Position numbers and translations under genes: made by a program. Shown one piece after another: positions 2,918 through 31,136 of a stretch of 32,000 bases of DNA. The DNA is taken from assembly GCA_964454455.1 (NCBI GenBank), contig CAYVVQ010000007.1:18188-50187 (forward strand), written 5' to 3'. How positions within the stretch are numbered: the stretch's first letter is position 1; each line of letters begins with the position of its first letter. Origin of the DNA: an uncultured Desulfobacterales bacterium. GTDB taxonomy: Bacteria > Desulfobacterota > DSM-4660 > Desulfatiglandales > HGW-15. The notes under the pieces were generated by a model, which saw nothing but the letters and a program-made list of their open reading frames with translations, was not told the DNA's origin and made no database searches.

Positions 2918-3026
2918 CCTCCCCCGATCCGCGATAAGAAAGAATGGAAGAGCCTGTCCGCCGACCCCGTCCCTCGGGGGCCGTTTTCCCGGGGGCGCCG
3001 CCCGTCACCACCCGGTGGGGTTCGCC

Positions 3027-6126: not shown

Positions 6127-6360
6127 GTCCGCTCTTTTGTAGGTTTTTTTCTTACAGCAAAAACCCAACATTTCGGCATTGAAGCGGCGGGGCCTCTCGG
6201 GTTATGATTTTCCTGTAGTGCTTTCCTGTATGGAAAAGTCGTCACCGTTCGCCTCGGACCCGGCGCCTCGAGCGGGGCGCACCGCCGGGCCGCGGACGGC
6301 CGGATCGAGGCGGGGACCACCCCGCGCACCACCCTGCATTATCTCGAAAGGAGGAACGTC

Positions 6361-7638: not shown

Positions 7639-7660
7639 CGAACGACACCCTCCCCCGTCC

Positions 7661-7684
7661 CCGCCCTGCGCGGGGGCGGTTTTC
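7661..7684 (+). terminator. GC hairpin plus TTTT after the binding-protein gene (partial terminator/attenuator or mRNA stabiliser)
   Basis: CCGCCC (7661-7666) pairs with GGGCGG (7674-7679) across a 7-nt loop, followed by TTTT (7680-7683). It lies 23 nt after the stop, ahead of the permease genes. Confidence 0.4.
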
Positions 7685-7749
7685 CCGGCGCTCGGCGGCC
7701 CTCTTCGGGCCCTACGGACCGGCACACACCACCACGAGGAAGGGTTCGC

Positions 7750-9635: not shown

Positions 9636-9647
9636 GGCGGGACGAAT

Positions 9648-10388
9648 ATGGCTCTGCTCAAGCTCGAGGAGGTGACCAAGCGCTTCGGAGGCCTCATTGC
9701 GGTCAACGCGGTGAGCCTCGAGATCGAGGCCGGGGAGTTCGTCGGCATCGTGGGCCCCAACGGCAGCGGCAAGACGACCCTGTTCAACGTGATCAGCGGG
9801 GTCTTCTTCCCCGAGGAGGGGCGCGTGTTCTTCGAGGACAAGGACATCACGCGGCTTCCTCCTTTCAAGCGGGCCCCCCTCGGTCTCGGCCGGACCTTCC
9901 AGATCCCGCGGCCGTTCGCCTCGGCCTCCGTCCGGGAGAACGTGGCCGTGGGCGCCATGTTCGGCGTCCTGGGCCCCGAGGTGAACGTGAACGAGTCCCT
10001 GGAGATCGCCGACCAGATCATCGACCGCGTGGGTCTCCAGGAGCACCGCGCCAAGCAGGCCGGCGCCCTCACCCCCGTGGAGAAGAAGCTCATGGAGGTT
10101 GCCCGGGCCCTGGCCATGAAGCCCAAGCTGCTCCTCATGGACGAGGCCATGGCGGGCATGCACCCGAGCGACATCGACGGCATGGTGCAGTTCATCAAGG
10201 ACCTGGCCAGGGACGAGGGCATCGCCGTGGTGGCCATGGTGGAGCACATCATGCGGGCCGTCGTGGGCATGGCGGAGAAGGTGATCGTGCTCGACCAGGG
10301 TTCCAAAATCGTGGACGCCCCGACCAAGCAGGCGCTCGAGGACCCCAAGGTCATCGAGGTCTACCTGGGGCACCCGCCGGAGGAGTGA
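9648..10388 (+). CDS. livG: ABC transporter ATP-binding protein (LivG-like)
   Basis: ORF 9648..10388. Walker A is GPNGSGKTT. LivG-type features are LLKLEEVTKRFGGLIAVN and the C-terminal KVIEVYLG. Confidence 0.9.
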   Translation: MALLKLEEVTKRFGGLIAVNAVSLEIEAGEFVGIVGPNGSGKTTLFNVISGVFFPEEGRVFFEDKDITRLPPFKRAPLGLGRTFQIPRPFASASVRENVAVGAMFGVLGPEVNVNESLEIADQIIDRVGLQEHRAKQAGALTPVEKKLMEVARALAMKPKLLLMDEAMAGMHPSDIDGMVQFIKDLARDEGIAVVAMVEHIMRAVVGMAEKVIVLDQGSKIVDAPTKQALEDPKVIEVYLGHPPEE

Positions 10389-10391
10389 TAC

Positions 10392-11099
10392 ATGCTCGAC
10401 GTCAAAGACCTGGAGTCCGGCTACGGGCCCATGCAGGTCCTGTGGAAGCCGAGCCTCACCGTGAAGAGGGGGGGGATCACCGCCCTGCTCGGGCCCAACG
10501 GCGTGGGCAAGAGCACCCTTCTCGGGACGGTGTTCGGCAGCGTGCCCCCCTGGGGCGGGCAGGTGATGTACAACGGGGAGGACGTGACCCGGGTCCCCAC
10601 ACACAAGAAGGTGGACCTGGGGCTGGCGCTGGTGCCGGAGGGAAAGCACCTGTTTCCCAGCATGACCGTCTACGAGAACCTGGCCATGGGGGCCTATCCC
10701 AAGAAGGCCCTGCCCCACCGGGACGAGAACATGGAGCAGGTCTTCACCCTGTTCCCCCGGCTCCAGGAGCGCCAGTGGCAGGCCGCAGGCTCCCTCAGCG
10801 GCGGCGAGCAGCAGATGGTCACCATCGGCCGGGCCCTGATGACCCACCCCCAGCTCATCATGCTGGACGAGCCCAGCCAGGGGCTCGCCCCGTTGCTTGT
10901 AAGGGAGGTATTCGAAACCATTAGCAAAATGAAAACCGACATCGGCCTGACCGTGCTCCTCATCGAGCAGAACGCGGACGCGTCGCTCGGCTCGGCGGAC
11001 TACGTCTACATCATGCACGAGGGGATGATCAAGGCTGAGGGCACGCCCGAGGAGATCAAGGGATCGTCGGAGATCAGGGAGGCCTATCTCGGGATCTGA
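10392..11099 (+). CDS. livF: ABC transporter ATP-binding protein (LivF-like)
   Basis: ORF 10392..11099. Walker A is GPNGVGKST, the signature is LSGGEQQM, and the LivF-type C-terminus is IREAYLGI. Confidence 0.9.
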   Translation: MLDVKDLESGYGPMQVLWKPSLTVKRGGITALLGPNGVGKSTLLGTVFGSVPPWGGQVMYNGEDVTRVPTHKKVDLGLALVPEGKHLFPSMTVYENLAMGAYPKKALPHRDENMEQVFTLFPRLQERQWQAAGSLSGGEQQMVTIGRALMTHPQLIMLDEPSQGLAPLLVREVFETISKMKTDIGLTVLLIEQNADASLGSADYVYIMHEGMIKAEGTPEEIKGSSEIREAYLGI

Positions 11100-11136
11100 A
11101 CGGCTTTTCCACCGGAAGCCCGCTCCGACAGCTCTT

Positions 11137-11162
11137 CCACCCGCGTGGGGCGGCTTTTTTTT
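11137..11162 (+). terminator. Weak intrinsic terminator candidate after the ABC operon
   Basis: A short stem CCGC(11141-44)/GCGG(11050+100-11153, i.e. 11150-11153) with a 5-nt loop is followed by T8 (11155-11162). The stem is only 4 bp, so support comes mainly from the U-tract and the position after the last gene. Confidence 0.35.
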
Positions 11163-11325
11163 GCACCGCGCCTTGCCGTGCGGCGTGTTTCCACCCCGCC
11201 CCTACCGGCCCCTCCCGGCCGGATGCCCGCTCCTGCCCGGTTCGCTTCCGCACATGGCGGGGCCCTTGACCGGCGGCGGGAAGGACATGCCCTTCCTTCT
11301 TTTCGCCGAGTGGAGCGTTCGGATA

Positions 11326-11367
11326 TTGACGGGTTCGCAAAAACCCGCTCACCCGCCGCTGGAAACG
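11326..11367 (+). repeat. 42-nt intergenic repeat, copy A (partner at 23969-24010, 41/42 identical)
   Basis: The sequence is TTGACGGGTTCgCAAAAACCCGCTCACCCGCCGCTGGAAACG. It contains the inverted repeat CGGGTT(11330-35)-N6-AACCCG(11342-47). Looser similarity continues about 13 nt further (ATA.CCTA.TG). It ends 126 nt before the oadA-like ATG. Confidence 0.85.
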
Positions 11368-11437
11368 CCATAGCCTACTGATATTTCCAGGGCAGATCTC
11401 AAGGCTCAGGGCTTTTTACGACGCCGTCAATATTCCA

Positions 11438-11465
11438 TTGACACAAATTTCACAAGCGATATAAA
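11438..11465 (+). promoter_or_regulatory. Sigma70-type promoter of the oadA-like/mdh/sdh/fum operon
   Basis: TTGACA (11438-43), a 16-nt spacer, then TATAAA (11460-65), all within an AT-rich patch. The ATG at 11493 is preceded by AAAGGAGGA. Confidence 0.55.
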
Positions 11466-11492
11466 AGCAGGTCATTAAAGGAGGACGACACT

Positions 11493-12989
11493 ATGGATCC
11501 GTTTTTGGAAGAAGGACCGAAAAATCCCATCAAAATCCAGGACAACACGTTCCGCGACGGGCACCAGTCGCTGTTCGCCACCCGGATGCGCACCGAGGAC
11601 ATGCTGCCCATCGCGGAGAAGATGGACTCCGTGGGCTTCTGGGCCATGGAGGTCTGGGGCGGGGCCACCTTCGACACCATGCACCGCTTTCTGGGCGAGG
11701 ACCCGTTCGAGCGGATCCGGACCCTCAAGAAGCACATCAAGAAAACCCCCTTCTCCATGCTGCTTCGGGGGCAGAACCTCGTGGGCTACCGCAACTACGC
11801 GGACGACGTGGCCCGGCTCTTCGTGGACAAGGCCTGCGAGGCGGGCATGGACGTGTTCCGGGTCTTCGACGCGCTGAACGACTTCCGCAACTTCAAGACG
11901 GTGGTCGAACGCATCAAGGCCAACGGCAAGCACTTCCAGGGGACCATCTGCTACTCCCTGACCGAGCGCCGGATGGGGGGAGACGTCTTCAACCTGGACT
12001 ACTACCTCGCCAAGGCCAAGGAGATCCAGGAGATGGGGGCGGACACCCTCTGCCTCAAGGACATGGCGGGCATCATGAGCCCGTTCGACATCGCCAAGCT
12101 GGTGACGGCGCTCAAGAAGGGGATCTCCATCCCCATCCACCTCCACACCCACTACACCAGCGGCATGGCCTCCATGATCTACCTGGAGGCGATCAAGGCC
12201 GGCGTGGACATCGTGGACACCTGCCTGGCGCCCTTCGCGCTGAGGACCTCCCAGCCCGCGGTGGAGCCCCTGGTGGCCACCCTCTACCAGACCACCCGGG
12301 ACCCGGAGTTCGACATCGAGCTGCTCCTCGAAATGGGCGAACACCTCGAGGAGGTCGCCCCCAAGTACCGCGACTACATCTCCAAGCACCGGATGTCCGT
12401 GATCGACACCGGGGTCCTTCTCCACCAGGTGCCGGGCGGCATGCTCTCTAACCTGGTGAGCCAGCTCAAGGAGGCCAAGGCCCTGGACCGGCTTCCCGAG
12501 GTGTACAAGGAGGTGGCCGTGACCCGGCGGGAATTGGGCACCCCTCCCCTGGTGACCCCCACCAGCCAGATCGTGGGGGTCCAGGCCGTGCTGAACGTGC
12601 TCTTCGGCCGGTACAAGATGGTGACCAACGAGGTCAAGGACCTGGTCTACGGCCTCTACGGAAAAACCCCCACGGGCGTGGACCCCGAGGTGCAGAAGAA
12701 GGTGCTCAAGGGCTACAAGCGCGGAGAGACGCCCGTCACCGGGCGGGCGGCCGACTACCTGGAGCCCGAGCTGGACAAGGTCCGGGAACGGGTGGGCGAC
12801 CTGGCCAAGGACGACTTCGACCTGCTCATCGCCGCCCTCTACCCCAACACGGGGCAGCAGTTCCTGAAGTGGAAGTACGGTCTGGAGGAGAGGCCGCCCG
12901 AGGTAAGGCCCAAGACGCTCGAGGACATTCGCAAGGAGGACGAGGCCATGGCGGCCGCCATCGAGCAGGTCTGCAAGGCCTCCCTCTGA
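11493..12989 (+). CDS. Oxaloacetate decarboxylase alpha / pyruvate carboxylase B / transcarboxylase-5S-type carboxyltransferase, 498 aa, without a biotinyl domain
   Basis: ORF 11493..12989. The HMGL-like TIM barrel includes IQDNTFRDGHQSLFATRMRTEDM and HLHTHYTSGMA. The conserved C-terminal region includes GGMLSNLVSQL. The protein ends ..AAIEQVCKASL with no (A/V)MKM biotinylation motif. Confidence 0.85.
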   Translation: MDPFLEEGPKNPIKIQDNTFRDGHQSLFATRMRTEDMLPIAEKMDSVGFWAMEVWGGATFDTMHRFLGEDPFERIRTLKKHIKKTPFSMLLRGQNLVGYRNYADDVARLFVDKACEAGMDVFRVFDALNDFRNFKTVVERIKANGKHFQGTICYSLTERRMGGDVFNLDYYLAKAKEIQEMGADTLCLKDMAGIMSPFDIAKLVTALKKGISIPIHLHTHYTSGMASMIYLEAIKAGVDIVDTCLAPFALRTSQPAVEPLVATLYQTTRDPEFDIELLLEMGEHLEEVAPKYRDYISKHRMSVIDTGVLLHQVPGGMLSNLVSQLKEAKALDRLPEVYKEVAVTRRELGTPPLVTPTSQIVGVQAVLNVLFGRYKMVTNEVKDLVYGLYGKTPTGVDPEVQKKVLKGYKRGETPVTGRAADYLEPELDKVRERVGDLAKDDFDLLIAALYPNTGQQFLKWKYGLEERPPEVRPKTLEDIRKEDEAMAAAIEQVCKASL

Positions 12990-13050
12990 TCCGATCGCTT
13001 TCGGGCGGTCTTCACGCAGTCACAGATCACGACCAAGGAGAAACCAACCC

Positions 13051-14196
13051 ATGACCTCCAACGAAATTCTCGACCTGCTCTTCAGTACCCTGCGAACCAC
13101 CGGCGTCTGGAACTTCCAGTTCAACATCATCGTGATGTGGGCCATCGGCTCCCTCTTCATCTGGCTCGCCATCGCCAAGAAGTACGAGCCCCTGCTGCTC
13201 CTCCCGATCGGGTTCGGCATCTTCATCGTCAACTTCCCGCTGGTGCCGATGATGGGGTACTCAGGGGACGGGCATCCTCACCTGCTCCAGTTCTTCTACC
13301 ACTACGGCCTCGAGTGGGAGATCATCCCCTGCGTGATCTTTCTCGGCCTGGGCGCCATGACCGACTTCGGACCGCTCATCGCGAACCCCAGGGTCCTGAT
13401 CATCGGCGCCGGCGCCCAGCTGGGCGTGTTCATCACCTTCACCGGGACCGTGCTCGCGGGCTTCACCCTCAAGGAGGCCGCCAGCGTCGGCATCATCGGA
13501 GGCGCGGACGGCCCCACCACGGTCTACCTCACCCAGCACCTGGCCCCCCATCTGCTGGGGGCGAACGCCCTGGCCGCCTACTCCTACATGGCCATGGTGC
13601 CCATCCTCCAGCCGCCCATTATGCGCCTGATGACCAACAGCAGGGAGCGGGTCATCAAGATGCGCCAGCTGCGGACCGTGTCCCGGCAGGAGAAGATCCT
13701 CTTCCCCCTGATCACCGCCGGCATCATCGCCCTGCTGGTCCCTTCGGTCATTCCGCTGATGGGCATGTTCATGCTCGGAAACCTCATGAAGGAGAGCGGC
13801 GTGGTGGCCCGGCTGACCGACACAGCCCAGGGCTCGCTCATGAACATCGTGACCATCTTCCTGGGTCTCTCGGTGGGCGCCACCATGCACGCGGACAAGT
13901 TCCTGAGCTGGAAGCCGCTGTTCATCTTCGGGCTGGGGCTGGTGGACTTCGGTGTCTGCACGATTGGAGGCATCCTCACCGTCAAGATCATGAACATGTT
14001 CCTCAAGGAGAAGATCAACCCGCTCATCGGGGCGGCCGGCGTCTCCGCCGTGCCCATGGCGTCCCGGGTCGTCCAGATGGAGGGCATCAAGTACGACAAG
14101 TCGAATCACATGCTCATGCACGCCGTGGGCCCCAACCTGGCGGGCGTGATCGGTTCGGCCGCGGCCGCGGGCATGTTCATCGCCATGTTCGACTGA
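13051..14196 (+). CDS. Sodium-ion-translocating decarboxylase beta subunit (OadB/GcdB/MmdB family)
   Basis: ORF 13051..14196, polytopic, with an AAGGAGAAA RBS. Family-typical stretches are IAKKYEPLLLLPIGFGIFIVNFP, GAMTDFGPLIANP, IGGADGPTTVY and AAGVSAVPMASRV. Confidence 0.9.
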   Translation: MTSNEILDLLFSTLRTTGVWNFQFNIIVMWAIGSLFIWLAIAKKYEPLLLLPIGFGIFIVNFPLVPMMGYSGDGHPHLLQFFYHYGLEWEIIPCVIFLGLGAMTDFGPLIANPRVLIIGAGAQLGVFITFTGTVLAGFTLKEAASVGIIGGADGPTTVYLTQHLAPHLLGANALAAYSYMAMVPILQPPIMRLMTNSRERVIKMRQLRTVSRQEKILFPLITAGIIALLVPSVIPLMGMFMLGNLMKESGVVARLTDTAQGSLMNIVTIFLGLSVGATMHADKFLSWKPLFIFGLGLVDFGVCTIGGILTVKIMNMFLKEKINPLIGAAGVSAVPMASRVVQMEGIKYDKSNHMLMHAVGPNLAGVIGSAAAAGMFIAMFD

Positions 14197-14269
14197 TTCG
14201 TGCTTCCCCGACTGTGGTGAGCGCTTGAATGCATTCGATTCCACTCCGACGCGTGCGAAAGGACGAGCC

Positions 14270-15743
<1,474 letters not shown>

Positions 15744-15811
15744 AACGCGCCGGGCACGGGCGGTGGGCCCCCGAGCCGGACGACCAGGCCGGCGAGCCCG
15801 CGGAGGTGCAG

Positions 15812-16462
15812 ATGAACTGGCTCGCGTCCACACTCCTCTCCTCCATCGGCAAGAAGCTGATGATGGCCTTCACCGGGGCCTGCTTCCTCCTGTTTCTCTG
15901 CGTGCACCTCGCCGGCAACCTCACCCTGTTCGAGGGCGGCGTCCTGTTCGAGGCCTACGCGGAGAGCCTTCACCGGCTGGGGCCGCTGGTGGTGGCGGCC
16001 GAGTGGGGACTCGTGGTGCTGGCCCTTGTACACGTCGTCACCGGTCTCTGGCTGTTCGCTTCGAACCTGCGGGCCCGCCCGCAGCGCTATCAGGTGAAAC
16101 GGCGGGCCGGCGGCCGCACCTGGGGATCGGCCACCATGCCCTACACCGGGATCCTGATCCTGGCCTTCGTGGTCCTGCACCTGTTCCACTTCCACTTCGC
16201 CGACCGGGTCGACACCGGCCTCTACCGCATTGTCTCGGACGTCTTCTCGAGCCCCTGGATCGTGGCCGTCTATGTGGTCGCCATGATCGTCCTGGCCTTT
16301 CACGTAAGCCACGGGCTCTGGAGCCTGTTTCAGAGCCTGGGAGCGAACCACCCCAAGTACATGCCCTTCCTCCAGAGGGTCGGCATCGCGGCCAGCCTGG
16401 CCTTCGGAATCGGGTTCGGGGCCATTCCGCTCTACATCGCGCTCTTCGGCCAAGGAGGATGA
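15812..16462 (+). CDS. sdhC: Succinate dehydrogenase/fumarate reductase cytochrome b subunit (single-subunit, b558/type B-like), 216 aa
   Basis: Frame of ORF 15179..16462 taken from [20 protein letters not shown] (ATG 15812, GGAGGTGCAG upstream). It has about 5 TM helices. Conserved-looking His residues are in [23 protein letters not shown] and [10 protein letters not shown]. It sits directly upstream of sdhA. Confidence 0.8.
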
Positions 16463-16463
16463 C

Positions 16464-18370
<1,907 letters not shown>

Positions 18371-18374
<4 letters not shown>

Positions 18375-19144
18375 CAGAGGAGACGAGCACCATCCGCATC
18401 CAGCTGCAGGTCTGGCGACAGAAGGGCCCGCGGGAGGGGGGACGGTTCGAGACCATCGACGTCCCCGACGTGGAGACCCACATGTCCTTCCTGGAGATGC
18501 TCGACGTGGTGAACGAGCGCCTGACCCTGGAGGGGAAGGAGCCCATCGAGTTCGACAGCGACTGCCGCGAGGGCATCTGCGGCATGTGCGGGGCCGTGGT
18601 GGACGGCATCGCCCACGGGCCGGAGCCCGCCGCAACCCTCTGCCAGCTCCACATGCGCAAGTTCGCGGACGGGGACGTGATCGTGGTGGAGCCCTGGCGG
18701 GCCAGGGCCTTTCCCCTGGTCAAGGACCTGGTGGTGGACCGATCCGCCCTGGACCGGCTGGTGGAGGCCGGGGGCTACGTCTCCGTGAACACCGGGGCGG
18801 CACCCGAGGCCAACACCCTTCCCGTGCCCCAGCCCAAGGCGGACGAGGCCATGGACGCGGCCGCCTGCATCGGCTGCGGCGCCTGCGTGGCCGCCTGCCC
18901 CAACGCGTCGGCCATGCTCTTCACGGGGGCCAAGGTCTCGCACCTGGCGCTCCTGCCCCAGGGGCGTCCCGAGGCGGCCCGCCGCGCCCTCGGCATGCAG
19001 CGGACCATGGACGGCCTGGGGTTCGGAAACTGCTCCAACGAGCGGGAGTGCGAGGCGGTCTGCCCCAAGGAGATCAAGATCACCCACATCGCGCGGCTCA
19101 ACCGGGAGTTCGTCAAGGCGAGCCTCGGGTCGAAGGAGCGGTAG
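18371..19144 (+). CDS. sdhB: Succinate dehydrogenase/fumarate reductase iron-sulfur subunit
   Basis: Frame of ORF 17990..19144 taken from GTG 18371, which forms a GTGA overlap with the sdhA stop. The 2Fe-2S cysteines are [10 protein letters not shown]. The ferredoxin cysteine clusters are [12 protein letters not shown] and [12 protein letters not shown]. Confidence 0.85.
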
Positions 19145-19156
19145 CCGGGAGTCCCC

Positions 19157-20773
19157 ATGCCCGAGTTCGTGTATCAGGAGCCCTTTCCCCTGGCCGAGGA
19201 CGCCGCCTCCTACCGGCTGCTGACCCCGGAGTTCGTCTCCGAGGGCCGGTTCGAGGATCACCGCATCCTGAAGGTCGATCCGGCCGGGCTCACCCTCCTG
19301 GCCGGGGAGGCGTTCCGGGACGTGGCCCACCTGTACCGGACCCGACACCTGGAGCAGCTGGCCGCCGTCCTGGAGGACCCCGAGGCCTCGGCCAACGACC
19401 GGTACGTGGCGCTGGAGATGCTCAAGAACGCCGTCATCTCGGCCGAGATGGTGTTCCCCATGTGCCAGGACACGGGAACGGCCATCGTTCTGGGAAAGAA
19501 GGGGCAGAGGGTCTGGACGAACGCTTGCGACGAGGAGCACCTCTCCCGGGGCGTGTTCGACGCCTATACCCGGAACAACCTGCGCTACTCCCAGAACGTG
19601 CCCCTCACCCTCTACGAGGAGAGGAACTCCGGCTCCAACCTGCCCGCCCAGATCGAGATCCAGGGCGTTACCGGAGACGCCTACTCGTTTCTGTTCATCG
19701 CCAAAGGCGGCGGCTCCTCGAACAAGACCTACCTGTTCCAGGAGACCAAGGCCGTTCTCCACCCCGACACCCTGGTGCCCTACCTGGTGGACCGGATGAA
19801 GGGGCTGGGCACCGCGGCCTGCCCGCCCTATCACCTGGCCTTCGTGATCGGCGGGACCTCGCCCGAGGCCAACCTGAAGACCGTCAAGCTGGCCACGGCC
19901 GGGTACCTCGACACCCTCCCCGTTACGGGAAACGAAGGGGGGCGGGCCTTTCGCGTGCCCGAGCTCGAGGCGGAGCTCCTGCAGCGATCCCGCGACCTCG
20001 GTATCGGGGCCCAGTTCGGGGGCAAGTACTTCTGTCACGACGTGCGCGTGATCCGGCTTCCCAGGCACGGCGCCTCCTGCCCCGTGGGCGTGGGGGTGAG
20101 CTGCTCCGCGGACCGGAACGCCCGTGCAAAGATCACCTTCGACGGGGTCTTCCTGGAGGCCCTGGACCGGGACCCGGCCCGGTTCCTCCCGAAGCCGGAG
20201 CCCGTGGACGAGGAGCCGGTCCGCATCGACCTGGACCGCCCCATGCACGAGATCCGGGCCGAGCTCTCCAGGCACCCCGTGGCCACCCGGCTGGCCCTGA
20301 GCGGCGACATCGTGGTGGCGCGGGACATCGCCCACGCCAGGCTCAAGGAGCGGCTGGACTGCGGAGAGGACCTCCCCGACTATGTCCGGGACCACATCAT
20401 CTACTATGCCGGTCCGGCCAAGCCCCCCGAGGGGCACCCCTCCGGGTCGTTCGGCCCCACCACGGCCGGCCGGATGGACCCCTACGTGCCGGTGTTCCAG
20501 GAGCGCGGCGCCTCCCTGGTGATGCTCGCCAAGGGCAACCGCTCCAGGCAGGTCACCGACTCCTGCAAGCGGTTCGGCGGCTTCTACCTGGGCTCCATCG
20601 GCGGCCCGGCCGCCCGCCTGGGTCGGGACTGCATCCGCGAGGTGGAGCTCCTGGAGTACCCGGAGCTCGGGATGGAGGCGATCTACCGGATTCGCGTGCA
20701 GGACTTTCCCGCCTTCATCATCGTCGACGACAAGGGGCATGATTTCTTCGAATCCGTCCTGCCTGAGGCCTGA
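19157..20773 (+). CDS. Class I (Fe-S dependent) fumarate hydratase, fused alpha/beta type, 538 aa
   Basis: ORF 19157..20773. Supporting stretches are [41 protein letters not shown] and [12 protein letters not shown]. Confidence 0.9.
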
Positions 20774-24126: not shown

Positions 24127-25035
24127 TTGCAGAAAAGCATCTCGAGCAGCCGATTCAACAGGACGATCCGTTTCTGGCCTATTGAGCTCCTCGCCTGCCT
24201 GCTGCTGTGCGGCGTCCTCGCGGGATGCGCCCAGGTGGCCGTACGGGGCTCGTCCTCGCTGGTCCCTCACTTCACCGGGGCCCTCTTCTCCGAGTGCGAC
24301 CCGGTGCTCGCCCGGAACTCCCTCCCCTCGAGCCTCAAGATGCTGGAGGGGCTCCTCCGGGCCGACCCGGGAAACCCGCGGCTCCTGGAGGCCCTCTCCA
24401 TGGGCTACACCGGGTATGCGGTGCTCTTTCTGGAGGACGAGGCCCCGGAAAGAGCCGAAAGACTCCTTCGACGGGCCCTGGGCTACGGCCTGGATGCGCT
24501 CGGCGATCGCGGTCGGGCCGTGGAGGCGGCCTCCATGGACCCGGACGCCCTTTCCCGGGCCCTCCAGGCCATGCGGGCCGAAGACGCCGAGCGTCTCTTC
24601 TGGGCCGGCCTCGCCTGGAGCGGCTGGGTCCGTCTCAACCTGGACGACCCCGAGGCCCTGGCCCAGCTCAATGCGGCCAAGGCCTGCCTTCGCCGCGTGA
24701 TCGAGCTGGACGGGACCACCTTCTACGGCATGCCCTACGCGGCCCTGGGAAGCGTCCTTTCCGCGGTCCCTCCCATGCTCGGCGGGGACCCGGAGGAGGC
24801 GCGGGCGCTCTTTGAAAAGGCAATCGCCGGAAATCACGGACGGTTTCTCCTGGCCAAGCTCTACTTTGCGCGGTACTATGCAGTCCGGGTCCAGGATCGC
24901 GCGCTGTTCGTGCGATTGCTGGACGAGATCGAGCAGACGGACCCCGACCTGCTCGGGGAGGTCTGCCTCCTCAACGCAGCGGCCCGGTTCCAGGCTCGGG
25001 GGCTGCGCGGGCAGCTGGATGACCTCTTTCTCTAG
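24127..25035 (+). CDS. TRAP-transporter-associated TPR lipoprotein (TatT-component family), 302 aa
   Basis: ORF 24127..25035, with a TTG start 8 nt after AGGAGG. The lipobox is LLCGVLAGC. Helical-repeat content includes LKMLEGLLRADPGNPRLL and LAKLYFARYYAV. It sits immediately upstream of dctP/Q/M homologues, as in TPAT systems. Confidence 0.65.
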   Translation: MQKSISSSRFNRTIRFWPIELLACLLLCGVLAGCAQVAVRGSSSLVPHFTGALFSECDPVLARNSLPSSLKMLEGLLRADPGNPRLLEALSMGYTGYAVLFLEDEAPERAERLLRRALGYGLDALGDRGRAVEAASMDPDALSRALQAMRAEDAERLFWAGLAWSGWVRLNLDDPEALAQLNAAKACLRRVIELDGTTFYGMPYAALGSVLSAVPPMLGGDPEEARALFEKAIAGNHGRFLLAKLYFARYYAVRVQDRALFVRLLDEIEQTDPDLLGEVCLLNAAARFQARGLRGQLDDLFL

Positions 25036-25044
25036 GAGCGCACA

Positions 25045-26067
25045 GTGAACCTTTCCCCTCGATTCCGCATCGCCCTCCTCTTCCCGGTCCTCTTTCTCCT
25101 GGTCGCGCCGGCCCCGGGCCCGGCGGCGGACCGGGCCGAGTTCGCCATCAAGTTCGCCGCCCTGGCGCCGGACGGCTCCACCTGGATGAAGGCCATGCGC
25201 GCCCTCGACCGGACCCTCCGGGAGAAGAGCGGAGGCCGACTCGGATTTCGCTTCTACCCGGGCGGCATCGCCGGCGACGAGCTGGACGTGCTTCGCAAGA
25301 TTCGCATCGGGCAGATCCACGCCACCGCATTCAGCGGGGTGGGCCTGACCCAGATCCTGCCCGAGGTGCGGGTGCTGGACCTGCCCTTCCTCTTTCGCGA
25401 CCTGGACGAGGTGGACCGGGTGCACGACACCCTCCGGGATCACTTCGCCCGGGGGTTCCGGGACAAGGGCTTCGAGCTCCTCGACTGGGCCGAGGTGGGC
25501 GATGTGCACCTCTACAGCAAGCAGTCCATCGACCGCCTCGCCGACCTGGCCCGGCGCAAGGTCTGGACCTGGTCCGGGGACCCCGTCTCCATGGAGACCT
25601 TCACGGCCATGGGCGCGAGCCCCATCCCGCTGGCCGCCACGGACGTGACCACCTCTCTCTCCACCGGAATGATCGACACGGTGTACGGTCCTCCCCTCGC
25701 GGCCCTGGCCCTCCAGTGGCACGCCTACACCAGCCACATGACCTCCTACCCCATCACCCACGCCACCGGGGCCATTCTCATCTCCCGGCGGTTCCACGGC
25801 CGCCTCCCGGAGGAGCTGGCCGGCCTCCTGAAGATCGAGCTCGAGGAGGCCACGGAGGAGCTCACCTATGCCCTGCGGGTGCAGAGCAACCAGGCCCTGG
25901 AGGTCCTCGAGAAGAAGAGCGGCCTCAGACCCACACCCGCGCCGACCGAAGAGGAGAAGCAGGCGTTCGATGCGGTGCACCGGGAGGTGGCCGACCGGCT
26001 GACCGGCCGGCTCTACCCGCAGGAGACACTGGATCGGGTCTATCGCATCCTCGGACGGACGCCCTGA
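25045..26067 (+). CDS. dctP: TRAP transporter substrate-binding protein (DctP family)
   Basis: ORF 25045..26067, with a GTG start 6 nt after AGGAG and a signal peptide. DctP-type motifs are GGIAGDELDVLRKIRIGQIHATAFSG and VLDLPFLF. Confidence 0.85.
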   Translation: MNLSPRFRIALLFPVLFLLVAPAPGPAADRAEFAIKFAALAPDGSTWMKAMRALDRTLREKSGGRLGFRFYPGGIAGDELDVLRKIRIGQIHATAFSGVGLTQILPEVRVLDLPFLFRDLDEVDRVHDTLRDHFARGFRDKGFELLDWAEVGDVHLYSKQSIDRLADLARRKVWTWSGDPVSMETFTAMGASPIPLAATDVTTSLSTGMIDTVYGPPLAALALQWHAYTSHMTSYPITHATGAILISRRFHGRLPEELAGLLKIELEEATEELTYALRVQSNQALEVLEKKSGLRPTPAPTEEEKQAFDAVHREVADRLTGRLYPQETLDRVYRILGRTP

Positions 26068-26077
26068 GTCGAACCGG

Positions 26078-26608
26078 ATGATCAAGACCTTGCATTTCAT
26101 GCGAGCCCTGGACCGGGGGCTGGCGCGCTGGGAAAAACGGGCGGTGGTGCTCTTCCTCTCGGCCATGGTCTTCTTCACCCTGGCCCAGGTCCTCCTCCGC
26201 GCCCTGGCCGCCTGCGCGGGCCTGGCCTGGGCCAATACGCTCCTCGCCCGCATCGCCTGGACCGATCCACTGGCCCGGGCGCTCATGCTCTGGCTCACCT
26301 TTCTGGGCGCCTCCCTCATCGCCCGCAAGAACCGGCACATCCGCATCGACGTCGTCTCGGCGGTGCTGCCGGAAAAATGGATGTCCCTGCGCGAGTCCGT
26401 GCTCGCATTCGCCACGGCGCTCATCTGCTGCATCATGTGTGCGGCCGCGGTTGCCATGGTGCGCATGGAACGGCAGTTCGGAGGCGCCCTCTTCCTCGGC
26501 GTGCCCACCTGGGCGGTGCAGGTCATCATCCCCCTGGGATTCCTCCTCCTGGCCTTCCGCTTCCTCCTGATCGCCCTGGAGCCTTTCCAGCCCGGGACCG
26601 GGGGGTGA
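26078..26608 (+). CDS. dctQ: TRAP transporter small permease (DctQ family)
   Basis: ORF 26078..26608. It has 4 predicted TM helices, including the typical RKNRHIRIDVV loop. It sits between the DctP and DctM homologues. Confidence 0.8.
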   Translation: MIKTLHFMRALDRGLARWEKRAVVLFLSAMVFFTLAQVLLRALAACAGLAWANTLLARIAWTDPLARALMLWLTFLGASLIARKNRHIRIDVVSAVLPEKWMSLRESVLAFATALICCIMCAAAVAMVRMERQFGGALFLGVPTWAVQVIIPLGFLLLAFRFLLIALEPFQPGTGG

Positions 26609-26612
26609 GCCC

Positions 26613-27890
26613 GTGATCGCCGCTCTGGCCGCCCTCATCATCCTCCTCATCCTGTTCGGCATGCCCGTGTTCGCCGGGATCACGGCCGCGGCCATGCTCG
26701 GCCTCTACTCGAGCGGGGTGGACCTCTCGGCCGTGGCCATCGAGATGTTCCGCCTGGCCAACGCCCCGGTGCTCCTGGCCATCCCCCTGTTCACCTTTGC
26801 GGGCTACCTCCTGAGCGAGGGCGGAACCTCCAGGCGGCTGGTCCGGTTCTCCCGATCGCTCCTCGGCTGGCTCCCCGGCGGCCTGGGCGTGGTGGCCCTG
26901 GTCTCCTGCGCCTTTTTCACGGCCATCACCGGCGCCACCGGGGTCACCATCATCGCACTGGGCGGGCTCCTCCTGCCCGCACTCATGTCCGAGCGTTACA
27001 CCGAGCGCTTCTCCCTGGGGCTCATGACCACCTCGGGGAGTCTGGGGCTTCACTTTCCCCCCAGCCTCCCCCTGATCCTCTTCGGCTTCGTCTCAGGCGC
27101 CTCCATCGAGACGCTGTTCGCGGCCGGCGTCATCCCTGGGGGGATCATGGTGGGCATCCTCTGCCTCTTCTCCGTTTTCATGGGCCGCAAGTGGAGACTG
27201 GAGAGCCCCGGGTTCTCCTTTTCCGAGTTCGCGGCCGCCATCCGCGAGGCCGCCTGGGAGCTCCCCATCCCGTTTCTGATCCTGGCAGCCATCTACACGG
27301 GATTCTCCACCGCCACCGAGACAGCCGCCCTCACCGTGGGCTACGTCCTCTTTATCAAGGTGATCGTCTACCGGGAGATCCGCCCCTTCTCCGATCTCCC
27401 CCGCATCATGGTGGAGAGCATGGAAATGGTGGGCGGCATCCTGATCATCCTGGGCGGCGCCCTGGGCTTCACCAACTACCTGGTGGATGCCTTCGTGCCC
27501 ATGAAGATTCTGGCCTACATGGAGGGCACCATCGAGACCCGCCTGGGCTTCCTCCTGGTCCTGAACGGCTTCTTGATCCTCGTGGGGTGCATGATGGACA
27601 TCTTCAGCGCCATCCTCATCGTGGTGCCCCTGGTCATGCCCCTGGCGCAGAAGTACGGCGTGGACCCGGTCCACCTGGGGGTGGTGTTCCTGGCCAACCT
27701 GGCCATCGGCTACAACACGCCGCCCGTGGGACTCAACCTCTTCATCGCGAGCTCCCGCTTCGACAGGCCCATCGTCACCCTGTACCGCGCCACCCTTCCC
27801 TTTCTGCTCCTCCTCCTGGCCTCCCTCCTCCTCATCACCTACTGGCCGGACCTGAGCCTCTTCCTCCCCCGGCAGCTGGGGCTGAGATAG
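26613..27890 (+). CDS. dctM: TRAP transporter large permease (DctM family)
   Basis: ORF 26613..27890 (GTG start), polytopic and 425 aa. Supporting stretches are PLFTFAGYLLSEGG, FTAITGATGVTIIALG and YNTPPVGLNLFIAS. Confidence 0.9.
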   Translation: MIAALAALIILLILFGMPVFAGITAAAMLGLYSSGVDLSAVAIEMFRLANAPVLLAIPLFTFAGYLLSEGGTSRRLVRFSRSLLGWLPGGLGVVALVSCAFFTAITGATGVTIIALGGLLLPALMSERYTERFSLGLMTTSGSLGLHFPPSLPLILFGFVSGASIETLFAAGVIPGGIMVGILCLFSVFMGRKWRLESPGFSFSEFAAAIREAAWELPIPFLILAAIYTGFSTATETAALTVGYVLFIKVIVYREIRPFSDLPRIMVESMEMVGGILIILGGALGFTNYLVDAFVPMKILAYMEGTIETRLGFLLVLNGFLILVGCMMDIFSAILIVVPLVMPLAQKYGVDPVHLGVVFLANLAIGYNTPPVGLNLFIASSRFDRPIVTLYRATLPFLLLLLASLLLITYWPDLSLFLPRQLGLR

Positions 27891-28031
27891 GCCCGGCTCC
27901 TGATTGGCGCGCCGGCCTGCGCGGCGGGCGCAAAACCCTTGCATTCCCCCGGGACAGTTGTTATGGAAATCATGCCGCGAGGCGATCGGTGATTCCGGAT
28001 TCATTCGGCAAAATTGAGGAGATACGTCACC

Positions 28032-29336
28032 ATGCCCACCATCGAGGATATCAAGCGGCGGCTGAGCGACGCGACCACCACCAAGGTGTTCTTCGTGGAC
28101 CTGAACGGCCGGGTGATGAGCCTGCCCATCAACCCGGAGAAGATCGAGCGGTTCCTGGAAACGGGCCTCGGGTTCGACGGCAGCTCCATCGCCGGGTACG
28201 CATCGGTGGAGAGCAGCGACAGGATCCTGATACCCGATCCGGAGAGCTTTCGGCTGGTGCCCTTCCAGGACGAACGGCTGGGGTTCTTCATCGGCCACAT
28301 CTTCAACGAGCAGGGCGAGCGCTCCAGAACCGACCCGCGAGCCGTCCTCGAGAAGGTGGTGGCCCAGGCCGAGTCCGAGTTCAACGCCCGGTTCACCGTG
28401 GGGCCGGAGCACGAGTTCTTTCTCCTGAACGGCGCCGACTGGTCGGACGGGATCCACACGGACAAGGCCGGCTACTTTCACCCCACGCCCCACGACCGGG
28501 GGGAGGCCGTCCGGAACGAGATCATCGCCATCCTCGCCGCGTGCGGCATCCGCTTCGAGAAGGCCCATCACGAGGTGACCCCGTCCCAGCACGAGATCAA
28601 CCTGGAGGCCACGGATCCCCTCCAGGCTGCGGACCGAACGGTCCTGTTCAACCACGTGACCCAGCAGACCGCCGCGGCCCACGGGTTTCACGCCACCTTC
28701 ATGCCCAAGCCCTTCGACGGGCAGAACAGGAGCGCCTTTCACATCCACCTCTCCATGCAGGACGCCCGGGGGAACAACCTGTTCTTCGACGAATCGGCCG
28801 AAGGCGGCCTGAGCCGAACCGCACGGAGCTTCATCGGCGGCATCCTCCAGCACGCCCGGGGCACCTCCCTCGTCATGGCCTCCACCCTCAACTCCTACAA
28901 GGCCTACGTGCTCGAGCGGGAGGCCCCGATCGTACGCACCTGGGGGTTCAGGAACCGGAGCTCCATGGTGCGCGTCCCCTACAGCCCGGACGCCCGGGGC
29001 GTCCGCCTCGAGCTCCGGAGCCCCGACCCCGCGGGGAACGTCTACCTCCAGCTGGCCACCTTCATCGCCATGGGGCTCGACGGCTTGAGAAACCGGACCG
29101 ACCCCGGCAAGCCGGATTCCGGAAGCACTTACAACAAGAGGTTCCGTCCCAAGGTGTGGGACCGCCGCTTCCTGCCCAAGAGCCTCTACGAGGCCCTGGT
29201 GGAGGCGGAGCGAAGCCGCTTCCTCCCGGAGCTGCTGGGCGATCACGCATACCGGAGCTACATGACCCTCAAGACCAGGGACTGGGAGGAGCACCGCACC
29301 CACGTGACGCCGAGGGAGCACGCGAAGTACCTCTAG
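28032..29336 (+). CDS. Glutamine synthetase family (type I-like) ATP-dependent amide ligase, 434 aa; physiological substrate unclear
   Basis: ORF 28014..29336 taken from ATG 28032 (GAGGAG upstream). GS motifs present are VGPEHEFFLL, AHHEVTPSQHEINL, TFMPKPF, NRSSMVRVPYS and RLELRSPDPAGNVYL. The usual G-S-G-x-H loop reads NRSAFH. Confidence 0.8.
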   Translation: MPTIEDIKRRLSDATTTKVFFVDLNGRVMSLPINPEKIERFLETGLGFDGSSIAGYASVESSDRILIPDPESFRLVPFQDERLGFFIGHIFNEQGERSRTDPRAVLEKVVAQAESEFNARFTVGPEHEFFLLNGADWSDGIHTDKAGYFHPTPHDRGEAVRNEIIAILAACGIRFEKAHHEVTPSQHEINLEATDPLQAADRTVLFNHVTQQTAAAHGFHATFMPKPFDGQNRSAFHIHLSMQDARGNNLFFDESAEGGLSRTARSFIGGILQHARGTSLVMASTLNSYKAYVLEREAPIVRTWGFRNRSSMVRVPYSPDARGVRLELRSPDPAGNVYLQLATFIAMGLDGLRNRTDPGKPDSGSTYNKRFRPKVWDRRFLPKSLYEALVEAERSRFLPELLGDHAYRSYMTLKTRDWEEHRTHVTPREHAKYL

Positions 29337-29393
29337 CAGAAAACGGACCCATCCTCCCGGGACCTGCCCCGGGCGGGAAAGGAGAGCACCCCC

Positions 29394-30467
29394 ATGGAAG
29401 CATGGACGGAACAGGTCCAGAACGCGGTCAACACCCTGGACAAGCTCAAGGAGTACATCAACGTCTCCCCGGATGAGGAGAGGGCGATCACCACCCTTCA
29501 CACCAAGTGGGGGACCACGCCCTACTTCGCCTCCCTCATGGATCCGGACGATCCCGACTGCCCCATCCGCAAGCAGGTCATCCCCTCCATGAGGGAGACC
29601 GAGAACCGCTACGGCATCCCCGACTACCTCATCTGGAAGGAAAACCGCGCGGGCGACGAGAGGCGGCCCGACGCCATCGCCCGACAGTACCACGACCGGA
29701 TCGCCTTCACCGTCACGGACGTCTGCGCCAACTACTGCCGCCACTGCTTCCGCAAGGAGCTCGTGGTGGACCGCGACCTGAAGCTTCGCATGGACGTGGA
29801 CGAGGGCCTCCAGTGGATCGCCGAGCACGAGGAGATCCGGGACGTGCTGGTCACCGGCGGGGACCCGTTCATCCTGTCGGACGACAAGATCGAGTACGTG
29901 ATCCGAAAGCTCCGGGAGATCCCGCACCTGGAGATGATCCGTTTCGGCACCCGCACGCCCATCGTGCTGCCCCATCGAATCACGGAAGGCCTCAAGGAGA
30001 TCCTGAGCCCCTTCCATCGAGTTCCCATCTGGGTGAACACCCAGTGCAACCACCCCAAGGAGATCACCGACCTCACCGCGAAGGCGGTCTACGACCTTCT
30101 CACCTGCGGGGTGAATGTGGGCAATCAGGCCGTGCTCCTCAAGGGCATCAACGACGACGTGGAGACCTTCCGCGAGCTCCATCAGAAGCTCCTCCGGGTG
30201 CGTATCCGCCCCTACTACGTCTTCTACTGCGAGCCCGCGCCCGGCATCGACCACTTCCGCACGCCCGTGGAAAAGGGCGCGGAGCTGATCCGGGACGCCA
30301 TCCGCGGCCACACCACGGGCCTGGCCCAGCCCATGTACGTGATCGCCACGAACATCGGCAAGGTCCCGCTCATGCCGGACTACTACATCGAAGGGGTAAC
30401 GGAGAAAGAGTACCTGCTGGTGAACTACAAGGGCGAGAAGACCTCCATCCCGAACATCCCGGAGTAG
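29394..30467 (+). CDS. KamA-family radical SAM / PLP aminomutase (lysine-2,3-aminomutase-like), short 357-aa form
   Basis: ORF 29394..30467 with a GAAAGGAGAG RBS. The radical-SAM triad is CANYCRHC. Family-typical stretches are TPYFASLM, PIRKQVIP, VLVTGGDPF, RFGTRTP, GNQAVLLKGIND, RPYYVFYC and HFRTPV. NIGK is the candidate PLP lysine. Confidence 0.9.
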   Translation: MEAWTEQVQNAVNTLDKLKEYINVSPDEERAITTLHTKWGTTPYFASLMDPDDPDCPIRKQVIPSMRETENRYGIPDYLIWKENRAGDERRPDAIARQYHDRIAFTVTDVCANYCRHCFRKELVVDRDLKLRMDVDEGLQWIAEHEEIRDVLVTGGDPFILSDDKIEYVIRKLREIPHLEMIRFGTRTPIVLPHRITEGLKEILSPFHRVPIWVNTQCNHPKEITDLTAKAVYDLLTCGVNVGNQAVLLKGINDDVETFRELHQKLLRVRIRPYYVFYCEPAPGIDHFRTPVEKGAELIRDAIRGHTTGLAQPMYVIATNIGKVPLMPDYYIEGVTEKEYLLVNYKGEKTSIPNIPE

Positions 30468-30468
30468 G

Positions 30469-30897
30469 CTACCGGACCCGCTCCAGGCGCTCCAGGCACT
30501 GGCGGAGGATCTCCACGTTCTGCCGGAGCGCATCCCGGGAGACCCGGGCGGCCTCGTCCTCGATGATCCGCGTGAGCAGGGCCACGCTCCGCTGCAGGGG
30601 GGCCTTGATCTCGTCGATGCGCGGGTCGCGCTCCGGTTTTTCCTGGGGCATCGACTCGGCGGCCGCCAAAATGGACGATGCGAAGACGGCCGTGTCGTTG
30701 GTGTCGTCGTCCTCCTCGGCAGGGGCCGTATCCCCGGTCAGCTTCCGGATGAGGGCGGCCATGTCGCTGCTGACCATGCGGATGGGGTCGATGTGGTAGA
30801 GCTCCATGTCCTCCAGGACGCCCTCGGAGATGAGATCCTGGTAGAGCTCCTGAAGCTCCTGGATCAGATCGTTCTGCCGGGTGTCCTGCTCGGCCAT
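30469..30897 (-). CDS. Hypothetical acidic, helical protein, 142 aa
   Basis: ORF 30469..31041(-) taken from MAEQDTRQ ('cat' at 30895-97). The composition is coding-like and rich in Glu/Asp/Leu. I recognise no family. It is convergent with the aminomutase gene, with 1 nt between the stop codons. Confidence 0.45.
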   Translation of the reverse strand: MAEQDTRQNDLIQELQELYQDLISEGVLEDMELYHIDPIRMVSSDMAALIRKLTGDTAPAEEDDDTNDTAVFASSILAAAESMPQEKPERDPRIDEIKAPLQRSVALLTRIIEDEAARVSRDALRQNVEILRQCLERLERVR

Positions 30898-31136
30898 GGG
30901 CCGCTCCCGCAACGGTTGGTGTGATCCACCATTCAAAGCCCCAGCCGAACCCCGAGCCGAGCCTTTGACGCCTTCATGGCGGGATGGTATCCTCGTCGCA
31001 TGGGATTCACAACCAAATTCTGCACCGCCCAAGGATCCCAAAGATCGGAACCCCTCGAAGATGTTGAAACGTTTTTCGCCGAAGATGCTCTATACCCCAA
31101 CGGCGAGAGAGTCGAAAGAACATGGAGGAGGACAAC

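Follow-up and report, generated by a model that had tools for sequence, protein, structure and literature searches.

This analysis concerns a pair of adjacent genes in a 32,000-nt stretch of DNA (the window; approximately 65 % G+C) from an uncultured Desulfobacterales bacterium (contig CAYVVQ010000007.1, positions 18,188 to 50,187). The same DNA lies on a JGI metagenome contig of 56 kb, Ga0153773_1000371. The first gene (28032-29336, + strand) encodes a protein of 434 aa from its ATG with matches to the Pfam domains Gln-synt_N and Gln-synt_C of glutamine synthetase (GS), and is here called the GS-like gene. The second (29394-30467, + strand) starts 57 nt 3' of the GS-like stop codon and encodes a 357-aa radical S-adenosylmethionine (SAM)/pyridoxal phosphate (PLP) protein of the KamA family; the name KamA* is used for this protein and for its clade. 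Both proteins matched their own families with E-values of at most 1e-86, and the two genes occur together again on dozens of contigs unrelated to one another. This indicates that the pair did not arise by chance.

The GS-like start was placed at the ATG because orthologues begin there, with a nearly invariant M1; mechanically, translation could also begin further upstream, at a TTG (28014). A Shine-Dalgarno-like GAGGAG (28016-28021, + strand), read directly from the DNA, lies 10 nt 5' of the ATG, and the ribosome-binding site of KamA*, GAAAGGAGAG (29377-29386, + strand), also read directly, lies inside the 57-nt spacer. An earlier reading of this DNA (the original prediction) had proposed that the two genes form a module that makes a beta-amino acid and then amidates or gamma-glutamylates it. 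The features on which it drew were all present, namely a 434-aa GS-family open reading frame (ORF) with the quoted motifs and an N-R-S-A-F-H loop, followed 57 nt downstream by a 357-aa KamA ORF with its own ribosome-binding site, CANYCRHC and a lysine in NIGK. No ablB, efp or epmA gene lies adjacent to the pair, which is consistent with the view that this is neither the AblAB nor the EpmAB arrangement.

Family membership and substrate pocket of KamA*

KamA* scored above the cut-off of the KamA family model TIGR00238 (289.1 bits, cut-off 199.2) and below those of the curated equivalogs. The best-scoring of these was arginine 2,3-aminomutase (TIGR04468; 364 bits, cut-off 600), followed by glutamate 2,3-aminomutase (Eam, TIGR04368; 334.9 bits, cut-off 650), lysine 2,3-aminomutase/AblA (TIGR03820; 334.8 bits, cut-off 525.4) and EpmB (TIGR03821; 191.5 bits, cut-off 369.3). 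Neither epmA nor efp was found in the window or in the annotated recurrent neighbour gene clusters.

When aligned by HMMER to the solved lysine 2,3-aminomutase (LAM) 2A5H (304 bits), KamA* retained the catalytic residues. The CxxxCxxC motif for the [4Fe-4S]/SAM cluster reads CANYCRHC (29724..29747, + strand; residues 111-118), with C111, C115 and C118 equivalent to LAM C125, C129 and C132, and was kept in all 200 of the KamA* orthologues compared. R120 aligns with LAM R134, which contacts the alpha-carboxylate, and the candidate PLP lysine, K323 in NIGK, aligns with LAM K337; these residues, too, are conserved in the 200 orthologues. The two side-chain-binding positions have changed. At the first, within YCEPA (30225..30239, + strand), E280 occupies the position of LAM D293, and this Glu was invariant (200/200). 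At the second, within VIATNIGK (30339..30362, + strand), A318 occupies the position of D330 (Ala in 197/200), and the loop that precedes the PLP lysine is two residues shorter than in 2A5H. The alignment agrees with the by-eye reading of the original prediction, in which Glu stood at the first lysine-binding position and no Asp at the second, and gives the pair E/A in place of the lysine (D/D) or glutamate (K/N) signature. On these grounds, KamA* is an intact-looking aminomutase with all catalytic hallmarks and with a pocket that matches no characterised subfamily.

A HMMER pass over 1.84 billion representatives identified 5078 family members. At 50 % identity, the full-length sequences of the KamA* clade fell into a single cluster (P0121; 77 % identity, 660 bits), and the next match reached 311 bits with 46 % identity. 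The clade is sharply set apart, with approximately 80 % identity inside it and at most 46 % to anything else. Among the aligned full-length top matches, 100 carried D/D, six carried K/N (Eam type) and only the window protein and P0121 carried E/A, a signature unique among the 150 top matches listed; the K/N-type P0131 best matched the Eam model. The next match after P0121 (P0123) is a Streptomyces griseocarneus protein that its source names arginine 2,3-aminomutase and that passes the corresponding model (630 bits, cut-off 600). Its side-chain pair is D/T, and it has the same two-residue deletion as KamA* and a similarly short C-terminus. A neighbour-joining tree with 60 bootstraps recovered the KamA* clade in 60/60 replicates, most frequently with P0123 as sister (16/60) and in 14/60 with an uncharacterised D/G protein (P0130). 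Because the sister differs among bootstraps, no claim of descent from arginine 2,3-aminomutase is made. A position inside the EpmB or AblA clade, raised in the original prediction, is not what was found, as the scores lie below both equivalog cut-offs and the protein falls in a clade of its own.

Stretches encoding KamA* relatives numbered 335 in a scan of one genome per species. The best 80 of these were at least 79 % identical and were almost all from Desulfobacterota metagenome-assembled genomes (MAGs), with the Desulfobacterales, Desulfocapsaceae, Syntrophobacteria and Desulfatiglandales as the carrier groups. Taken by its motifs and phylogeny, KamA* is a KamA-family 2,3-aminomutase of a new specificity clade, for which an amino shift is the predicted reaction.

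Catalytic residues and glutamate pocket of the GS-like protein

The GS-like protein scored below the cut-offs of the curated GlnA model (TIGR00653; 362.3 bits, cut-off 429.15) and PuuA model (NF045547; 230.9 bits, cut-off 650), and its orthologues are named by PGAP only as 'glutamine synthetase family protein'. The closest solved relatives are archaeal and Bacillus structures of type I-alpha GS (GSI-alpha), at approximately 40 % identity, and by this resemblance the protein is derived from a type I-alpha GS. It contains the motifs GPEHEFF, HHEVTPSQHEI, FMPKPF, NRSSMVRVP and RLELRSPD.

Residue conservation was assessed in 55 orthologues from KamA*-linked loci. The equivalents of the metal ligands (E129, E131, E212, E220, H269 and E357), of the ATP/phosphate residues R339, R344 and R359, and of Tyr179 and the flap Glu327 were all invariant or nearly so. 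The Asp50'/Ser53 latch, in FDGSSI (28173..28190, + strand), was likewise kept (D49 in 55/55, S52 in 54/55); the Asp50' loop is the site of ammonium binding in GS (PMC10799026). Directly after it, in GYASVESSD (28194..28220, + strand), Ser stands at the position of Bacillus subtilis R62, which mediates feedback inhibition by glutamine (PMC10799026), and T or S was found there in 52/55 orthologues.

The residues around the alpha-end of L-glutamate were replaced throughout the clade. In the rebuilt Asn264 loop, NRSAFHIH (28725..28748, + strand), G265 has become R233 and G267 has become A235 (each in 55/55), with N232 and H237 kept. In NSYKAYVLEREAP (28890..28928, + strand), R321 has become A291 (54/55), the following Leu Y292 (55/55), G325 E295 (acidic in 54/55) and Y326 R296 (R or K in 52/55), with the flap Glu kept as E297. 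The MtGS residues Gly246 and Arg303, which correspond to G265 and R321, are among the glutamate-binding residues called 'perfectly conserved' across the GS of bacteria and archaea (PMC10799026). In the gamma-glutamyl-amine ligases the pattern is inverted, with the glutamate and ATP sites kept and the ammonium site changed (PMC8998196).

Going by these residues, the GS-like protein keeps the machinery for forming an acyl-phosphate with ATP and two metals and for attack by ammonium, and has replaced the residues that hold the alpha-end of L-glutamate. The enzyme would still use ammonium, but would bind another acid, or glutamate in another way. A search for sigma-54 promoters 5' of 58 GS-like genes gave one weak match, and so no Ntr-type signal.

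Linkage of the two genes and their neighbourhoods

On the KamA* side, 70 genome loci extended far enough upstream for the comparison, and in 56 of them the GS-like gene lay directly 5' on the same strand (median spacer 55 nt). On the GS side, metagenomes were scanned with aligned GS-like proteins as the query, which gave 80 loci. Of these, 14 were at least 55 % identical, all with NSYKAY, and 66 were at most 41 % identical, nearly all with NSYKRL, four without a motif match and none with NSYKAY; the identity gap to canonical GS is therefore sharp. KamA* was adjacent in 9 of the 11 signature loci with enough flank, in both orders (GS-KamA and KamA-GS), and none of the 66 canonical GS loci had a KamA neighbour. 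Among four further GS-side loci, two had KamA* (in one, from Eth-SRB1, with a frameshift) and two did not. Adjacency thus held in approximately 80 % of loci, in either order, and its conservation, which the original prediction had proposed to check, was apparent from both sides (56/70 and 9/11).

The flanks beyond the pair differ completely between loci (for example L081 and L082), and the commonest architecture is the bare pair. A divergent sub-lineage (GS-like approximately 56 % and KamA* 64-76 % identical) retains the pairing; two of its three KamA* copies have the YCE motif (L099 and L100), and in the most divergent (L097) the position was not captured by the pattern search. The GS-like/KamA* pair is a real conserved module. 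Literature searches combining aminomutase and GS, beta-glutamate and beta-glutamine, and sulfate reducers did not find it described, in line with the original prediction, which had named it a candidate undescribed module. In Desulfobacteraceae Eth-SRB1 (L084:8525-9594, RPGP01000001.1), KamA* is frameshifted near residue 323, through either an assembly error or decay to a pseudogene.

Several gene types recur beside the pair at other loci. An M20 hydrolase gene lies 3' of KamA* in 12 to 14 loci, always alongside the GS-like gene. Six loci (L065, L021, L025, L038, L057 and L071) have a five-gene form with an additional ATP-grasp ligase and a long KamA paralogue, in the fullest order ATP-grasp, KamA(S/T), GS-like, KamA*, M20 or a permutation of it. 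The S/T KamA paralogue is approximately 530 aa long, has an N-terminal extension and the motifs FNCSYRN ... ATAGGK, and falls below all equivalog cut-offs; the ATP-grasp ligase beside it has a weak BesA-like match. In L065, the ATP-grasp, S/T KamA and M20 genes lie within 9406-13610. Their clustering points to a more extended pathway, the product of which could be a dipeptide that contains a beta-amino acid. In L011 (approximately 6210-6542), a 110-aa ORF 5' of the GS-like gene (cluster c49, in three to four loci) is a fusion scar, with its N-terminus from the ATP-grasp protein and its C-terminus from the end of the S/T KamA, and is the trace of a deletion after which only the portion with the GS-like, KamA* and M20 genes remained. 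This indicates that the longer cluster was ancestral in at least one lineage. In another locus (L069:4506-6329), a 607-aa KamA-like radical-SAM protein is encoded 5' of the GS-like gene; it has no lysine at the PLP position and, judged by this residue, may not be an aminomutase at all.

A GlnH-type binding protein with a permease and an ATPase lies beside KamA* in 12 of approximately 100 loci, in several orientations. This transporter was found in 5 of the 14 KamA* loci without a GS-like gene and in none of the 66 canonical GS loci. The binding protein passes the GlnH equivalog (339 bits, cut-off 303), fails the Lys/Arg/Orn binding-protein model (188 bits, cut-off 256) and is approximately 57 % identical to Escherichia coli GlnBP (278 bits). 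It retains D10, A67, K115 and H156, the amide contacts of GlnBP in the 1WDN structure; G68, T70 and G119 are the alpha-end contacts. One group of GlnH-type proteins carries G68A, T70F and G119A, with the amide contacts kept, and a second group H156F (L073:6624-7364 and 10 other loci). With these residues changed, the ligand could be an isomer of glutamine such as beta-glutamine.

A Desulfobacula MAG (L078, 3265-10000) has the order GlnHPQ, KamA(M/D), RpiR regulator, KamA*, glutaminase A (481 bits, cut-off 368), with no GS-like gene adjacent. The KamA(M/D) paralogue, found here and in L072 directly 5' of KamA*, is a third type of approximately 400 aa with the signature YQCMPVA ... GHDIGK. A GltB-like flavin mononucleotide (FMN) protein is encoded near KamA* in seven loci. 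In L153, L109 and L125, a GltB-like protein 62-70 % identical to the KamA*-side ones lies beside a canonical NSYKRL GS, which indicates that the GS-like gene and canonical GS can share similar neighbourhoods. The neighbour annotation contained no kamDE, kdd, ablB or natural-product genes near KamA*.

In the window itself, a tripartite ATP-independent periplasmic (TRAP) transporter block (24127..27890, + strand), assigned from Pfam/NCBIfam matches, lies directly 5' of the pair and comprises TatT (24127-25035), DctP (25045-26067), DctQ (26078-26608) and DctM (26613-27890), with a gap of 141 nt between DctM and the GS-like gene. Of the relatives, only the three closest (L001, L003 and L004) keep it next to the pair. 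No ligand was assigned to its binding protein, as the solved relatives are too distant (best 108 bits). A run of C4-dicarboxylate genes (11493-20773) lies 5' of this block and encodes an oxaloacetate decarboxylase alpha-like protein (11493-12989), oxaloacetate decarboxylase beta (13051-14196), malate/lactate dehydrogenase (14802-15743), a fumarate reductase/succinate dehydrogenase flavoprotein (16464-18374) and fumarase (19157-20773).

On the other side, a 190-aa ORF (30469-31041, - strand) runs convergently towards KamA*, and 1 nt separates the two stop codons. It had no family match in Pfam or NCBIfam, is kept (64-75 % identity) in no relatives other than the closest (L001, L002 and L004), and appears in the JGI annotation in a shorter, 142-aa version. 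A terminator-like hairpin and T-run (30619..30641, + strand), found by consensus scan only, lies approximately 150 nt past the KamA* stop and inside this convergent ORF; the sigma-70/terminator scan gave nothing else useful. An FmdB zinc-ribbon gene follows further 3', after the 190-aa ORF. An Rfam scan of the whole window gave no RNA family and thus no glutamine or other riboswitch.

Two further observations concern the 5' end of the window. Genes for a Cache/PAS histidine kinase (3015-5513) and for a response regulator of the LuxR type (5470-6126) precede those for a Liv-type branched-chain amino-acid ATP-binding cassette transporter (6361-11099). An ORF on the - strand (706-2049) has a spore-photoproduct-lyase-like radical-SAM domain (Pfam SPL, 74 bits) and overlaps other long ORFs in a high-GC stretch.

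Proposed function and alternative explanations

From the residues kept and replaced in the two proteins and from the two-way linkage of their genes, the pair is probably a functionally coupled module of an aminomutase and an NH4+-dependent amide synthetase. The GS-like protein would be an ammonia-dependent amide synthetase that does not hold its carboxylate as GS holds L-glutamate, KamA* would act on the amide that corresponds to this acid, and the module would link the making of an amide to a 2,3-amino shift, both on a single substrate skeleton. The substrates may be glutamine and beta-glutamine, a tentative assignment that is favoured because of the GlnH-type protein, the glutaminase, the GltB-like protein and the GS-type partner in the genomic context. 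More doubtful is the fully specified form of this proposal, in which KamA* would be a glutamine 2,3-aminomutase and the GS-like protein a dedicated beta-glutamate/beta-glutamine synthetase. The pocket agrees with an amide in that Glu, a hydrogen-bond acceptor, stands where Eam-type enzymes have a Lys for the carboxylate; the carboxamide NH2 would donate hydrogen bonds to Glu280. The change from Asp to Glu could be compensatory, since the carboxamide nitrogen of glutamine is one position nearer to C-alpha than the epsilon-nitrogen of lysine.

Beta-glutamine is a known osmolyte. Beta-glutamate is an osmolyte of methanogens, and the GS of Methanohalophilus makes beta-glutamine from it (PMC1224877); it is also a very abundant solute of marine archaea, Thaumarchaeota among them, reaching 730 mM in Nitrosopumilus (PMC8269262). 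The module could run in either of two directions. In salvage, the GS-like protein would convert beta-glutamate, NH4+ and ATP to beta-glutamine, and KamA* would convert beta-glutamine to L-glutamine, which would enter central nitrogen metabolism. In synthesis, a feedback-insensitive GS-like protein would convert glutamate to glutamine, from which KamA* would make beta-glutamine as a compatible solute. Salvage is slightly preferred; the alpha-end changes of the GS-like protein would make sense in this direction, and the uptake systems and glutaminase fit it. Of the original proposal that a beta-amino acid is made and then amidated, amidation is kept as a reading, but the order with the aminomutase first is not required, because the GlnH-type transporter, the glutaminase and the Glu-for-Lys replacement suggest an amide as the substrate or product of KamA*.

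Several observations weigh against the glutamine/beta-glutamine assignment or against tight coupling of the two genes. The GlnH transporter is present at only approximately 12 % of loci and the glutaminase at one, and the GltB-like protein also lies beside canonical GS, in three loci. The GS-like gene has no adjacent KamA* in 4 of 15 sampled loci (L086, L087, L091 and L098), and KamA* has no GS-like gene in 14 of 70. In the window, the TatT-TRAP transporter may serve the upstream C4-dicarboxylate genes and not the pair. No cultured carrier of KamA* was identified among the carriers, almost all of which are MAGs. On the protein side, R233 or R296 may restore L-glutamate binding in the GS-like protein, and Glu at the D293 position of KamA* would equally suit a cationic side chain.

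The last of these points bears on a serious rival, although an unlikely one, in which KamA* is a variant arginine, lysine or ornithine 2,3-aminomutase and the GS-like protein amidates the carboxylate of the beta-amino acid or otherwise modifies the product. The best curated hidden Markov model for KamA* is that of arginine 2,3-aminomutase, and the Streptomyces representative is both its nearest characterised-type relative (46 % identity), with the same short C-terminus and two-residue deletion, and its most frequent sister. However, the score is far under the cut-off (364 against 600 bits) and the sister position was recovered in only 16/60 bootstraps. With Glu at the D293 position the negative charge is preserved, and its additional methylene would match a cationic chain that is shorter. 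The loss of R321 and the acidic residue 295 in the GS-like flap (54/55) would suit a cationic tail, but the same protein also gains the basic residues R233 and R/K296. The neighbourhoods argue against a basic substrate, as the binding protein passes the GlnH model (339 against 303) and fails the Lys/Arg/Orn model (188 against 256), and the neighbours include glutaminase and GltB-like genes and no arginine or lysine pathway genes; the absence of kamDE, kdd, ablB and natural-product genes nearby points the same way.

The GS-like gene could also simply be the GS of its carriers, since the GltB-like neighbour also lies beside canonical GS. In this improbable case, the substitutions would compensate for one another in a housekeeping enzyme and KamA* would merely stand alongside, for example as a glutamine-consuming or unrelated aminomutase that has no ligase dedicated to it. 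All catalytic and ammonium-site residues are intact, as expected of a housekeeping GS, and the gene stands alone in four loci. Against this, the protein is below the curated GlnA cut-off and PGAP assigns it only to the family, while residues reported as universally conserved (PMC10799026), G265 and R321, are replaced throughout the clade (55/55 and 54/55). The identity gap to canonical GS (at least 55 % against at most 41 %) and the way in which the signature tracks KamA* adjacency (9/11 against 0/66) also argue for a separate enzyme, as does the sigma-54 search, in which only one of 58 loci had a promoter-like site. Least probable is that KamA* makes beta-lysine or beta-glutamate, followed by PuuA-like gamma-glutamylation or by amidation of beta-glutamate by the GS paralogue. 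The tight linkage of the two genes is compatible with this, and there are precedents for both second steps, as PuuA, GlnA2 and GlnA3 glutamylate amines (PMC8998196) and Methanohalophilus GS amidates beta-glutamate (PMC1224877). However, gamma-glutamylation, one of the two options in the original prediction, is unlikely because the GS-like protein keeps the ammonium site (the equivalents of D50, S53, Y179 and E327) and replaces glutamate-binding residues (G265 and R321), the reverse of the ligases, in which the glutamate site is conserved and the ammonium site altered (PMC8998196); it also scores only 231 bits on the PuuA model against a cut-off of 650. KamA* is in turn unlikely to make beta-glutamate from glutamate, because it lacks the Eam-type K/N pair and its Glu should repel the gamma-carboxylate.

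Compared with known systems, the module is closest in form to AblA/AblB, the lysine 2,3-aminomutase together with the acetyltransferase for beta-lysine from the methanogen operon that yields N-epsilon-acetyl-beta-lysine, an osmolyte (PMC1224877). Both are two-gene systems of a KamA-family aminomutase and one modifying enzyme, with a beta-amino-acid derivative as the AblAB product. However, AblB is a GNAT protein and the partner here is a GS-family ligase, and KamA* scores 335 against 525 on the AblA model, has lost both Asp residues and has no adjacent ablB. Arginine 2,3-aminomutase (BlsG type, TIGR04468; Streptomyces griseocarneus RLV04635.1) shares with KamA* a core of approximately 350 aa without a long C-terminal domain, the two-residue deletion before the PLP lysine and the lack of an Asp at position 330. 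It differs in having D in place of Glu at position 293 and T in place of Ala at position 330, at 46 % identity, and its representative comes from Streptomyces, whereas the contexts of KamA* are in Desulfobacterota and resemble primary metabolism. Eam (TIGR04368), like the proposed KamA*, links the alpha and beta forms of a C5 amino acid, here proposed to be an amide, but has Lys/Asn and not Glu/Ala at the side-chain positions, and KamA* scores 335 on its model against a cut-off of 650.

The enzyme of Methanohalophilus portucalensis that acts on beta-glutamate is reportedly the ordinary GS of that organism, with relaxed specificity. It resembles the role proposed for the GS-like protein in converting beta-glutamate to beta-glutamine with ATP and NH4+ (PMC1224877), and it belongs to the GSI-alpha lineage, which provides the best structural matches of the GS-like protein. 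In contrast, the GS-like protein forms a separate clade in which the replacements at G265 and R321 are fixed, and its gene is linked to that of an aminomutase. PuuA, GlnA2/GlnA3/GlnA4 and GmaS are likewise GS paralogues recruited to specialised small-molecule metabolism, but in these the ammonium site has changed and the glutamate site is conserved (PMC8998196), the reverse of what is seen here. By its motifs and model scores, the pair lies outside AblAB, the Methanohalophilus GS system and the Eam, arginine 2,3-aminomutase, EpmB, GlnA and PuuA equivalogs. What is new lies in the specificity determinants and in the pairing; both folds and both chemistries are already known.

To our knowledge, the only substrate classes of radical-SAM 2,3-aminomutases are lysine (including EpmB, which modifies elongation factor P), glutamate and arginine. 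The sharply separate KamA* clade, which occurs in hundreds of species and has a new pocket that does not vary, would extend this list by a substrate class, and a glutamine 2,3-aminomutase would be one not yet described for the KamA family. All characterised GS paralogues known to us change the accepted amine. The GS-like protein appears instead to change the accepted acid; the GS fold would then have diverged in a direction that is new for it. Two recombinant enzymes make the question testable. Should beta-glutamate and beta-glutamine prove to be the substrates, the pair would provide genes so far missing for how the dominant sulfate reducers of sediments turn over or make a major solute of marine archaea. 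It would be the first genetically defined bacterial route that ties beta-glutamate and beta-glutamine to central nitrogen metabolism, in Desulfobacterota, whether by salvage of an archaeal solute in sediments or by synthesis of beta-glutamine as a solute.

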